64,000 bases of DNA from an uncultured Lachnospiraceae bacterium. Lineage in GTDB: Bacteria; Bacillota; Clostridia; Lachnospirales; Lachnospiraceae. Under the pieces are notes generated by a model that was not told the origin of the DNA, did no database searches, and worked only from the letters and a program-made list of their open reading frames with translations. Each line of letters begins with the position of its first letter. Within the stretch, counting starts at the first letter, position 1. Made by a program: the position numbers and the translations under genes. Below, piece by piece: positions 4,486-51,284 of the stretch. Location of the stretch: assembly GCA_944380605.1 (NCBI GenBank), contig CALWIA010000006.1, positions 106,683-170,682 on the forward strand, written 5' to 3'.

Positions 4486-4941
4486 TTACAAAAAAATCCC
4501 CAGCCGCAGCCCCGCCCAGTACAAAAGCCCCAGCACCCAGCTGGCCAGGACGCCGTAGAGAATCACCGGGCCGGAAATGGTGAATATTTTGCAGCCCACG
4601 CCGAACACGTCGCCCTCCGCCTGGTTCTCAATGGCCGGCGCCGCCACGGAGTTGGCAAAGCCGGTAATGGGCACCAGCGCTCCGGCGCCGCCCCACTGCA
4701 CCAGCTTCGGGTATACGCCCAGCCCCGTAAGCACCACGCTCAAAAGAATCAGGGCCAGAATCTGAAAAACCGCCGTCTGCTCTTCTCCAGCCCCCAGGGC
4801 CTGCAGCCCGCTGCGGATTCCCTGCCCCAGCGTGCAGATGGCGCCGCCGGTGACAAACGCCCGGAGCATATTTTTCCAGAGGGGAAATACCGGCGTGATG
4901 GTTTTTATATATTCCTGATACTCCTTTTTATCAATTTCCAA
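4486..4941 (-). CDS. spoVAC: Stage V sporulation protein AC
   Basis: RAFVTGGAIC, GAGALVPITGFANS and FTISGPVILYG motifs; TTG start at 4941 after a GGAGG RBS. Confidence 0.9.
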   Translation of the reverse strand: MEIDKKEYQEYIKTITPVFPLWKNMLRAFVTGGAICTLGQGIRSGLQALGAGEEQTAVFQILALILLSVVLTGLGVYPKLVQWGGAGALVPITGFANSVAAPAIENQAEGDVFGVGCKIFTISGPVILYGVLASWVLGLLYWAGLRLGIFL

Positions 4942-13480: not shown

Positions 13481-13740
13481 AAAAACGCCCTCTGCCAAAC
13501 GGCAAAGGGCGAAATCCATCCGCGGTACCACCTTTGTTACGCGGCATTCTGACGCCGCGCGTCTCTTCTGTCCGGTAACGGGGACAAATCGGAAGCGGCT
13601 ACTGTCCGCGCCTGCCGGCGCCCGGGGTTTGCCGCTCCGGCTCCGAAGCTACCTTCTGTCCACACCTTCTGAAACCGTCTTGCAGCCGGCGAACGGTTCT
13701 CTCTGTCAGGGCCGTGAACCTACTCCTCTTCTTCTCAGCC
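13481..13740 (-). promoter_or_regulatory. T-box riboswitch leader of valS with a Val (GTA) specifier
   Basis: Minus strand: AAGGTGGTACCGCG T-box (plus 13521-13534); terminator CGCCCTTTGCC-gttt-GGCAGAGGGCG-TTTTT; GAAG-GTA-GC specifier at 13650-13652. Confidence 0.93.
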
Positions 13741-13756
13741 TGTCGCTATGTATGCT

Positions 13757-28476: not shown

Positions 28477-28507
28477 GCAGCCGGCGTACGCGAAACATAC
28501 GCATCGT

Positions 28508-28622
28508 TTCTTCTTCCATCCAGACTGTAACTGTTGGTTTTGGAATCGCACCAAATCAGCCGCCCTGCGGCGGGTCGCGGACTGTACCGCCAGTGGGGAA
28601 TTGCACCCCGCCCTGAAGAACT
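28508..28622 (-). promoter_or_regulatory. FMN (RFN) riboswitch
   Basis: TTCAGGGCGGGGTGCAATTCCCCACTGGCGGTA...GTCCGCGA...CTGATTTGGTGCGATTCCAAAACCAACAGTTACAGTCTGGATGGAAGAAG; upstream TTGCAT-17-TATACT promoter at 28644-28672. Confidence 0.95.
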
Positions 28623-28689
28623 TTCTTTTCTTTTTTCCAGATCAGTATAATCCTTCCGCCGCGAAAATGCAACGGTTTCTTTTTCGGTT

Positions 28690-49117: not shown

Positions 49118-49145
49118 TTTACAGTTTATTTATTTATGGTATAAT
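49118..49145 (+). promoter_or_regulatory. Extended -10 sigma-A promoter upstream of the structured leader and deacetylase
   Basis: TTTACA-16 nt-TATAAT with a TG at 49137-49138. Confidence 0.6.
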
Positions 49146-49170
49146 GTTCACGAAAGCATTAAGCAGTGCG

Positions 49171-49410
49171 AAAAAAGCCGGATCTGAAAACGGCGATGTG
49201 CTCGCACATGAGCCGTTAAAGAGCCGGATTTTTTCATAGGGCGCAAGCCCGTGAGCGAACGAACGGAGTTCGTGAGCGCGCACTGCGCCTATGCGGCAAA
49301 GACGCCGAGTGCTTGCACGAGCATCTTTTTGTATCTGGCAGATGACATAGGGCGCAAGCCCGTGAGCGAGGAAACGCAGTTTCCGAGCACGCACGGCGCC
49401 TATGCGCCCC
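49171..49410. repeat. Tandem two-unit hairpin repeat (REP-like), period 111 nt
   Basis: CATAGGGCGCAAGCCCGTGAGCGA identical at 49235-49258 and 49346-49369; GCGCCTATGCG at 49285-49295 and 49396-49406; GTGC-YY-GCAC hairpins before each copy. Confidence 0.85.
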
Positions 49411-49477
49411 CTCCCCGCAGGGATTTCTGCCCGCACGGCGGACACCACTACATCAAATGAGCTAAGAGGTACTTTCC

Positions 49478-50974
49478 ATGAGTTACAACAGCCGTAAATC
49501 CGATTACCGCAGACGTATGATGCGCAGAAGACGGCGGGCCCTGGCGCGGCGCCTGCCCCTTCTGGCGCTGGCCATTCTGGGCGCCGCCGTCATCGGCTGC
49601 GGATTTTTTGTCATAAAACGCCAGCTTGCGGCCGGTTCGGCGCCGGCCGCCGGCACGGTCCTGGCAGATTCCGAAAACGGAACCGCGCCTTCCGGATCCG
49701 CGCCGGGATCTCCGTCTGCCCAGCCGGAAACCGGCACCAGCGCTCCCGATTCTTCTGAAGAGACCGGGACTCCCGCGGAAAGTAAAGGATCCGAAGAGGC
49801 CGACGCGCTGCTTGAGGAAGCGGCCCGAACTGCCGCCGGGTACGACTACGACGCCGCCATCGAGATGCTGTCCGCCTCTCCTTTCATGGAGACGGACCCC
49901 CGGTTCCGGGAAGCGGCTGACGAATACGAAGCCACCCGCGCCTCCCTGGTTCCCTATGACATCAACCAGGTCACCCACGTGTTTTTCCATTCCCTGGTCA
50001 TCGACGAAGCCAAAGCCTTTGACGGCGACGCCGACGAAAGCGGCTACAACCAGGTGATGACCACCCGGGACGAATTCTTAAAAATCCTGCAGTCCATGTA
50101 CGACAAGGGCTTTGTCCTGGTGCGGCTCCACGACCTGGCCTCGGAAACTGTAGACGAAGACGGGAACGTCCGCATGGAAGCCGGTACCATCCTGCTTCCG
50201 GAAGGCAAAAAAGCGTTTGTCATGTCCCAGGACGACGTCTGCTACTACGAATATATGGATGGGGATGGCTTTGCCAGCCGTATGGTCATCGGCGAAGACG
50301 GAAAGCCCACCTGTGAGATGAAGATGGACAATGGCACCGTCGCCACCGGCGCCTATGACCTGGTGCCCATTCTGGAAGAATTTATCCAGGAACATCCGGA
50401 CTTTTCCTACCGGGGCGCCCGGGCGGTGCTGGCCTTTACCGGCTACCAGGGAATCCTGGGCTACCGCACCGCCGCCTCCTACAGCGATTCTCCCACCTAT
50501 GAGCAGGACCGGGAAGCCGCGGCAGCCGTGGCGCAGTGTCTCCGGGACAACGGCTGGGAACTGGCTTCCCACAGCTGGGGCCACCGGGATCTGGGCGCCA
50601 TCGAATACAGCCACTTCAAAACCGACTGCGACAAATGGGAGTCCGAAGTGGAATCCCTCATCGGCCCAACAGACATCATTCTGTTCCCCTTCGGCGCCGA
50701 CGTAGGCGACTGGCACCCCTATTCCAGTGATAACGACCGGTTCAACTACCTGTACTCCCTGGGATTCCGCTATTTCTGCAACGTGGATTCCAGCCAGTAC
50801 TGGGTGCAGCTGGGCCGCACTTCCCTGCGTCAGGGACGCCGCAACCTGGACGGCTACCGCATGTGGCAGGACATCGCCGCCGGAGACAATTCCGAAAAAC
50901 GCAGGCTGGACGACCTGTTCCGGGCGGAAGACGTCTTTTCTCCCAACCGGCCCACACCGGTCACCTGGGACTAA
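49478..50974 (+). CDS. Membrane-anchored polysaccharide deacetylase-family protein
   Basis: Arg-rich N-terminus and TM; SQDD and SHSWGH (Asp-His-His triad); LFPFG. Confidence 0.75.
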   Translation: MSYNSRKSDYRRRMMRRRRRALARRLPLLALAILGAAVIGCGFFVIKRQLAAGSAPAAGTVLADSENGTAPSGSAPGSPSAQPETGTSAPDSSEETGTPAESKGSEEADALLEEAARTAAGYDYDAAIEMLSASPFMETDPRFREAADEYEATRASLVPYDINQVTHVFFHSLVIDEAKAFDGDADESGYNQVMTTRDEFLKILQSMYDKGFVLVRLHDLASETVDEDGNVRMEAGTILLPEGKKAFVMSQDDVCYYEYMDGDGFASRMVIGEDGKPTCEMKMDNGTVATGAYDLVPILEEFIQEHPDFSYRGARAVLAFTGYQGILGYRTAASYSDSPTYEQDREAAAAVAQCLRDNGWELASHSWGHRDLGAIEYSHFKTDCDKWESEVESLIGPTDIILFPFGADVGDWHPYSSDNDRFNYLYSLGFRYFCNVDSSQYWVQLGRTSLRQGRRNLDGYRMWQDIAAGDNSEKRRLDDLFRAEDVFSPNRPTPVTWD

Positions 50975-51032: not shown

Positions 51033-51284
51033 GGAGCTGCTGCAAAGCAGATGTAATAGTAGCATCTGCAGAGCATCGGCTCTGTTTTTATGTCTCATCC
51101 ATGACACTACGGCTGAAGCCGCGGCATAGCGGTCGTCAGCCGTACAATTTAAGGGGAACTGCGTCCAAAATCCCGCTCCGTCATCGATTGTGATGATTTT
51201 GCGGCGCTGCCTTTCCATTTTAGACATAAAAATAGAGCTGCGGCTCCAGCAGATGGATGATTCATCTGCTTTTGCAGCAGCTCC
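51033..51284. mobile_element. 252-bp MITE-like element with ~63-bp imperfect terminal inverted repeats
   Basis: 51033-51095 versus reverse complement of 51222-51284 share GGAGCTGCTGCAAA, a GCAGATG..CATCTGC hairpin, GCTCT and TTTTTATGTCT; no transposase and no TSD seen. Confidence 0.65.

Follow-up and report, generated by a model that had tools for sequence, protein, structure and literature searches.

The leader of a gene in an uncultured Lachnospiraceae bacterium carries two similar hairpin units in tandem, which raises the question of whether the array is a single-stranded DNA repeat, a regulatory RNA or a structure of another kind. The window analysed here is the whole stretch of 64,000 nucleotides that contains this leader. 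It holds two 61-nt units (49235-49295 and 49346-49406) that repeat with a period of 111, as reported in a preliminary description of the DNA. The units are 85% identical, and the 24-mer common to both occurs twice in the window, against an expectation of zero. The inner hairpins that had been described, ACGAAC-GGA-GTTCGT (49259-49273) and GGAAAC-GCA-GTTTCC (49370-49384), were found again, as were the related GTGC-YY-GCAC hairpins before the units (GTGCTCGCAC, 49198-49207; GTGCTTGCAC, 49309-49318) and the promoter with TG and TATAAT. The features of the leader are as follows.

49118..49123, plus strand: -35 hexamer TTTACA, apparently native to the promoter of the downstream gene; the orthologous loci of congeners keep CATTTACA-N17-TGTGCTATACT and a short leader.
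49137..49145, plus strand: extended -10 box TGGTATAAT, part of the repeated cassette; the likeness among genomic copies starts here.
49150..49162, plus strand: single-stranded conserved 5' tail ACGAAAGCAUUAA, with at most one change per copy in 16 aligned copies; the family consensus is ACGUAAGCAAUGA.
49163..49169, plus strand: P1 5' strand GCAGUGC, pairing with 49280-49286 and 100% paired in the 16 copies.
49170..49235, plus strand: P2, a long hairpin that is interrupted by internal loops and tipped by G(CUCG)C at 49198-49207; its sequence varies while pairing is kept.
49239..49250, plus strand: P3, GGGC-GCAA-GCCC, a 4-bp GNRA-capped hairpin that is invariant in the 16 copies.
49255..49277, plus strand: P4, with two G-C pairs, a tandem G-A and ACGAAC-GGA-GUUCGU (a 6-bp hairpin with a GNA loop); three of its pairs covary.
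49280..49286, plus strand: P1 3' strand GCACUGC, the closing helix partner of 49163-49169.
49292..49398, plus strand: truncated second copy, covariance model positions 18-133, 52.4 bits.
49429..49440, plus strand: terminal mini-unit GCCCGCACGGCG, in which the 3' half of P3 is fused to a P1' strand and which marks the 3' end of the repeat.
49464..49480, plus strand: ribosome-binding site (RBS) AAGAGG and ATG (49478) of a 498-aa membrane protein; the RBS region is like that of element-free orthologues.

The promoter (49118-49145) is near consensus, with TTTACA, a 16-nt spacer and a TATAAT preceded by TG (11 of 12 matches), and the transcript start is predicted at about 49150-49152. Scanning the leader in the window revealed no terminator-like site between this promoter and the ATG at 49478. 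The 498-aa membrane protein encoded downstream (49478-50971) is kept in 36 of 40 congeners with 57-74% identity. The preliminary description called the product a deacetylase, but this identity is uncertain, as the score against the polysaccharide deacetylase family PF01522 is marginal (22.3 bits; cut-off, 23.1). At the gathering level, the only Rfam matches in the window were an FMN riboswitch (28504-28624, minus strand, 109 bits) and a T-box leader (13502-13745, minus strand), the latter barely above its cut-off (93.5 versus 93 bits). The window also contains a separate ~250-bp element (252 bp; 51033-51284) with inverted arms between convergent genes; kinship with the leader module was considered and dropped, as no shared feature was evident on reading.

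RNAalifold applied to the 16 copies and folding of the single sequence gave the same result for the ~140-nt core, a four-way junction of helices P1-P4. The folding energy of this core (-61.1 kcal/mol, z = -5.8) was equalled by none of 200 shuffles. Within the source genome, 98.8% of the pair cells in the 16 copies are standard and 16 of 37 pairs have changed on both sides, a value that none of 500 shuffles reached, and sliding the partner strand by 1-3 columns left 27-45% paired. Across 81 Lachnospiraceae copies among the matches listed, 96.1% of cells are paired and 27 of the 37 pairs show compensatory change, in alignments fitted to the covariance model. P1 has one compensatory change (A-U to C-G) and three G-U wobbles in the 16-copy alignment, and in the 81 copies (among the matches listed) it is 97.8% paired with 4 pairs altered on both sides. 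Below the tip of P2 (helices 2-3), both sides have changed in 11 of 14 pairs within the source genome alone, and its G(CUYG)C tip is found in 15 of the 16 aligned copies and in the family consensus. P3 has a single compensatory variant, in the congener L071, and its invariance in the 81-copy set is partly forced by the pattern used to collect the copies. The three covarying pairs of P4 divide the copies 8/8. Non-Watson-Crick combinations on the transcribed strand are biased towards G-U/U-G (55) over A-C/C-A (19), about 3:1, and this excess fits selection on a transcript of the element strand.

A pseudoknot between the 5' tail and the rest of the element is supported neither by covariation in the family alignments nor by mutual information (at most 0.31), and the short complementarity that links the tail (RGC) to the P2 tip (GCU) either does not vary or does not covary. 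Most family members contain the motif CGUAAGC two times, in the single-stranded tail and in a bulge just 3' of the P2 tip, and the family alignment has three GAGC motifs at the junction; both motifs may be recognition sites for a protein or nuclease. The stems contain indels and compensatory changes, which speaks against protein coding by the module. The outer stem CATAGG(G)CGC/GCGCCTATG that had been assigned to each unit is present at the locus, but it is not a conserved helix: near forms were seen elsewhere only in the first units of two copies (C20 and C27_226095) and in one second unit (C3), and the stem overlaps P3 and P1, competing with the covarying helices. In unit 2, where P1 lacks a 5' partner, the stem may form locally.

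The units are not equal tandem partners, as unit 2 belongs to a second copy truncated at its 5' end. This copy contains the distal part of P2 with its GUGCUUGCAC tip (49309-49318), P3' (49350-49361), P4' (49366-49388) and the P1' strand GCACGGC (49391-49397), and it is without promoter, tail, P1 5' strand and P2 base. It is 95% identical to a copy on another contig (C34:44108-44206), the P1 of which is a compensatory CCGUGC/GCACGG variant that unit 2 retains. The first 156 nt from 49150 are 96% identical to a copy on contig C27 (at 226095), and the following ~100 nt are 95% identical to the C34 copy. Given that the two halves match different paralogues, the leader is a recombinant of the two. 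Endings similar to the terminal mini-unit were also detected in other genomic copies.

We searched the whole assembly (2.53 Mb, 34 contigs, 93.6% complete) by BLAST and by motif and found 18 copies, i.e., the window locus and 17 further loci with the same layout, which bears out the idea of a dispersed repeat family. Each copy starts with TGGTATAAT, 4 nt and the conserved tail ACGAAAGCATTAA, continues with GCAGTGC and a ~65-nt hairpin of variable sequence tipped by GTGCTYGCAC, and has a 3' half composed of ATA-GGGCGCAAGCCC-GTGAGCGA, a variable hairpin and GAGCGC-GCACTGC. The copies end in 0-3 extra partial units, and each leader has 1-4 P1' strands. All 18 are followed by a gene on the same strand, with the start codon 157-347 nt past the tail start. 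These genes are functionally unrelated, including rarA, dnaE, holB, pyrH, murA and glgC, genes for an Asp23 protein, an S1-domain protein, a purine nucleoside phosphorylase, a pectinesterase, a GNAT enzyme, a histidine kinase, a response regulator and lipoproteins, and others. No T-runs were found in the 18 leaders outside the P2 stem or the final bases before the start codon.

A covariance model (R1) built from the 16 aligned copies gave full-length matches in 33 of the 36 other species of the genus (1-13 per species); of 24 other families of the order, one gave a match. Scanning species-representative genomes with a sequence pattern yielded at least 117 stretches. Nearly all titled records among the matches listed are Lachnospiraceae or unclassified gut Clostridia, and the genera represented there include Hungatella, Lacrimispora, Enterocloster, Cuneatibacter, Lachnotalea, Candidatus Mediterraneibacter, Roseburia and others. 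Among the same matches, 68 of 73 family copies (about 93%) are co-oriented with a downstream open reading frame that is supported by homologues.

The family is closely tied to RNA 5' ends. TATAAT with at most one mismatch was found in the 16 nt upstream of 76 of the 106 full-length copies with enough flank (among the matches listed), nearly always placed as TATAAT, 4 nt and ACG. Seven loci start at most 5 nt from the 3' end of tRNA-Ala(UGC). Four of these (L119, L149, L165 and L205) lie in tRNA-Ala/tRNA-Asn operons, and three of the four are within the 106 aligned copies; the other three (L129, L146 at 4767-4894, and L152) occupy the spacer between tRNA-Ala and 23S rRNA in rRNA operons. The -10 boxes and the tRNA-Ala 3' ends together place ~80% of the copies where an RNA 5' end arises, by initiation or by tRNA 3' processing. 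The three rRNA operons have an unusual order, 16S-5S-tRNA-tRNA-Ala-element-23S.

Comparison of orthologous loci gave information on gain and loss. The element is absent from the orthologues of the window gene in 13 congeners, where a plain CATTTACA-N17-TGTGCTATACT promoter is followed by a leader of 30-60 nt, and from 35 homologous metagenomic loci. Empty sites were found between species and not at the strain level, the closest of the metagenomic loci being at most 86% identical. Since the native -35 hexamer and an orthologue-like RBS have been kept, the cassette either took the place of the segment that runs from the -10 box into the leader or was inserted there. This comparison shows a gain at the window locus in the source lineage only. 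A few positions recur between species (pyrH, glgC, the S1 gene and holB) and most differ. A tree was built from 52 copies of six genomes and rests on about 140 nt; in it, all 16 aligned source-genome copies form one clade (mean identity, 79%; maximum, 98%), and copies of three other genomes interleave as apparent orthologous pairs. The clustering of the source-genome copies points to a lineage-specific burst or to homogenisation by concerted evolution.

A second dispersed repeat of ~127 nt with ~10 copies, which we call module U, is associated with the element. It starts with a palindrome made of the extended -10 box and its complement, TGGTATAAT-ATCGAAAG-ATATTATACCA, and ends in another TGGTATAAT. 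Module U precedes five element copies; elsewhere it is joined directly to P3-P4 units or genes. It had no match in Rfam. The following copies were located.

L010:1372-1498 (C27:225966-226092): module U.
C9:35291-35418: module U.
C27:241-365: module U.
C2:50098-50214: module U.
C14:17265-17347: module U.

Module U and the arrangement of the partial units indicate that the repeat system is a mosaic. Several possible sources of mobility were considered. A search for the Y1 transposase (PF01797) gave no match in the 93.6%-complete assembly, and the control search was positive in 6 of 14 reference genomes. We rejected a guide-RNA scaffold of an IS200/605 element and a retroelement origin, as the assembly has no TnpB zinc-ribbon domain and no RVT_1 domain. 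An IS1182-driven mini-transposon was likewise rejected, with neither PF13751 nor PF05598 in the assembly, though it is possible in principle because a metagenome-assembled genome (MAG) may lose IS copies. No blastn match to the element was obtained in phage or plasmid collections. Inspection of the copy ends by eye showed no target-site duplication, and the 3' ends vary.

The preliminary description had also suspected a match to a Clostridiales motif already in Rfam. An Rfam scan at relaxed threshold confirmed the kinship but not the membership: Clostridiales-1 (RF01699) was the only family to match the element, globally and exactly from P1 to P1', with 26.7 bits in the window, 26.2 in a paralogue and 30.5-42.6 in four relatives, against a gathering cut-off of 48. 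None of the 18 best-scoring family copies tested from other genera reached the gathering score, and the reciprocal match of R1 to true RF01699 copies was weak (12-16 bits). As scores of 26-43 bits fall below 48, the element is not a member by Rfam's criterion and ranks as a shortened, unannotated RF01699 variant; judged by model scores and alignment, the family as a whole is a shortened, sub-threshold variant of the orphan Clostridiales-1. The source genome also encodes true RF01699, with five matches of 50-131 bits at three loci (L001-L006), each with partial tandem duplications directly before genes.

C27:112876-113160: true RF01699.
C23:16615-16884: true RF01699.
C15:190092-190430: true RF01699.

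In these true copies, a -10-like box lies so near P1 that initiation at the usual distance would take place within the P1 5' strand. The gene at C27:113199 is preceded by a true RF01699 copy in the source genome and by the short variant in its Hungatella and Lacrimispora orthologues.

Both RNAs have a four-stem junction closed by a 7-bp P1 and a long P2 with a GCUUGC cap, as aligned to the Rfam consensus, and both are multi-copy in gut Clostridia and Lachnospiraceae, with tandem partial duplications and positions just 5' of genes in the source genome. The P4 of Clostridiales-1 has a GGGA/GGA internal loop, a short stem and a GNA triloop; the elements of many congeners have GAU-GGA-GC-GAA-GC-GGA-AUC at this place, with GGA/GGA internal loops and a GNA triloop, whereas those of the source genome have a simpler GA/GA loop and a 6-bp hairpin. 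The long P3 of Clostridiales-1 carries conserved internal loops (UGAG...GAAG / CGGA...CGAA), while that of the element is just GGGC-GNRA-GCCC, and cmscan deletes most of the P3 of the RF01699 model when aligning the window element. The P3 tip of one true copy (C23) is GGGC-GCCA-GCCC and resembles the P3 of the element. The element is also shorter (~125 versus 166 nt), has a conserved 5' tail of 13 nt and comes with a -10 box. Clostridiales-1 was described by Weinberg et al. (2010; PMC2864571) as a large structure of four stems that is common in the human gut and has distant homologues of lower conservation; no function was given. They deemed it probably not cis-regulatory (PMC2864571), whereas the element is found consistently upstream of genes. 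In Rfam, RF01699 is classed as an sRNA, and a full-text literature search found no later functional work on Clostridiales-1.

Considering these results, we regard it as probable that the leader is a promoter-plus-leader cassette with a four-way-junction RNA related to RF01699, and we propose that it is a constitutive 5' module acting in cis. The extended -10 box (49137-49145) would drive a transcript of which the first ~140 nt (49150-49289) fold as P1-P4, the truncated second copy and the mini-unit would come next, and transcription would read through into the downstream gene in the absence of a terminator. Situated at the 5' terminus, the module would act constitutively and in cis, without ligand sensing, protecting or processing whatever RNA is downstream; possible ways are a block to 5'-to-3' decay by RNase J, use of the long P2 as an RNase III site, and insulation. 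Spread would take place at the DNA level, together with the -10 box, via recombination between copies. This specific combination, a constitutive cis-acting role in protection or processing at the 5' terminus with spread alongside the -10 box, is something we infer tentatively and hold at somewhat below an even chance, and a polymerase-modifying role is a further possibility. The single-stranded tail of 11-13 nt exceeds that of classical 5' stabilisers, which counts against the proposal. A broader idea, serious enough to keep in mind but doubtful, would make the family a general Lachnospiraceae 5'-end device that has to occupy the very beginning of an RNA, be it generated by a promoter or by tRNA 3' processing. 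Such a device would stall RNase J or modify polymerase like the put RNAs of phage HK022, would thereby shield mRNAs, tRNA-Asn and pre-23S rRNA, and would spread with the -10 box.

Alternatively, the element could be a selfish, non-autonomous MITE-like repeat whose fold serves propagation, with promoter activity and pre-gene position as by-products. Its variable presence at orthologous promoters, the single clade of aligned source-genome copies with up to 98% identity, the mosaic build with module U and tandem partial units, and the P1 strands, which amount to a short terminal inverted repeat, would all suit such an origin. We nevertheless consider it unlikely, because its 5' boundary is an RNA 5'-end determinant even within tRNA and rRNA operons, ~93% of copies are co-oriented with genes, and both the conservation of junction nucleotides and the G-U bias point to selection at the RNA level. 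The lack of noticed target-site duplications, the variable 3' ends and the absence from phage and plasmid collections also speak against it, as does an assembly without Y1, TnpB, reverse transcriptase, PF13751 or PF05598, with the reservation that IS copies can be missing from a MAG. A trans-acting small RNA or protein sponge, processed from 5' leaders and from the spacers of tRNA and rRNA operons, has a still smaller share of our belief. The tRNA-flanked copies would be excised as free RNAs by RNase Z and RNase P, the tetraloops are stable and structural, the purine-rich conserved motifs (three GAGC and two CGUAAGC) could be protein sites, and both the Rfam class of RF01699 and the verdict of Weinberg et al. 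(PMC2864571) agree with a role in trans; yet the mRNA leaders have no terminator or conserved 3' end after the module, and such an RNA would have no need of ~93% co-orientation immediately 5' of genes.

The earlier suggestion of a structured cis-regulatory RNA has stood as far as a structured 5'-leader RNA is concerned. A riboswitch-like sensor governing a housekeeping regulon is, by contrast, very improbable: junction nucleotides are conserved across the bacterial family and the position is that of a 5' UTR, but there is no terminator, anti-terminator or platform sequestering the Shine-Dalgarno sequence, the distance to the RBS varies (as in the 157-347 nt from tail start to start codon), and truncated copies are tolerated. 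The downstream genes share no function, form sets that differ between species, and are joined by tRNA and rRNA operons. The other earlier suggestion, a single-stranded DNA element of the REP/BIME type that a RAYT or an IS200-type HUH nuclease recognises, now appears hardly credible. A dispersed family with modular mosaic structure would be expected of it, and C(GNA)G triloops are stable in DNA as well, but the RAYT search found no Y1 gene, although its controls were positive. Moreover, the units are direct and not REPIN-like inverted pairs, a four-way junction with a 60-nt covarying arm is unlike short palindromes, and the copies have a uniform orientation to genes (18/18 in the source genome and 68/73 among the matches listed) and are tied to a promoter or a tRNA end. 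The ~3:1 ratio of G-U over A-C and the GNRA and CUUG tetraloops are typical of RNA.

The constitutive cis-acting module that we favour bears on an abundant RNA of the human gut microbiota, Clostridiales-1, which has been an orphan since 2010 and of which Rfam annotation misses the short variant. Most species of a large Lachnospiraceae genus and members of many other genera carry that variant, a single genome having as many as 18 copies, and it accounts for long 'mystery' leaders in Lachnospiraceae genomes. Its tie to 5' ends, its own consensus promoter and its gain and loss before housekeeping genes make function testable in terms of mRNA stability, processing and antitermination. A further use of the module could be as a portable expression part in gut Clostridia.

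Among known repeats, the Correia/NEMIS elements of Neisseria are promoter-bearing MITEs with transcribed hairpins cut by RNase III. They are marked by clear terminal inverted repeats and by duplicated TA targets, and they occur in both orientations. The present element is likewise a dispersed intergenic repeat that supplies promoter elements, places a co-transcribed long hairpin in 5' UTRs and varies in insertion between lineages; it differs in that neither such ends nor such duplications were noticed, in its uniform orientation and in its four-way junction. BOX of Streptococcus pneumoniae and BIME/REP of Enterobacteria are mosaic repeats, and REPs depend on RAYTs. To our knowledge, they have no fixed promoter, no fixed gene orientation and no four-way junction conserved throughout a family. 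They share with the element a modular build and a variable number of tandem sub-units (here P3-P4-P1' units, plus module U), whereas the element has a promoter, a gene orientation and a four-way junction, and RAYTs are absent from the source assembly.

Nijveen, Matus-Garcia and van Passel (2012; PMC3575422) described putative mobile promoters as very similar upstream regions that contain a promoter and precede non-homologous genes, and noted that RNA motifs can ride on them. That is a descriptive class with no defined structure, while the conserved part of the element is mainly RNA and also occurs without a promoter after tRNA-Ala. The aprE and ermC leaders of Firmicutes are 5' stabilisers, which have a stable structure at the extreme 5' end of the transcript. 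The element resembles both these stabilisers and exoribonuclease-resistant RNAs in having a stable structure at the extreme 5' end that is independent of the downstream sequence; its single-stranded tail is longer than that of the stabilisers, and covariation supports no ring-like pseudoknot of the kind found in the resistant RNAs. If it stalls RNase J, the element would be a bacterial counterpart of the exoribonuclease-resistant RNAs.
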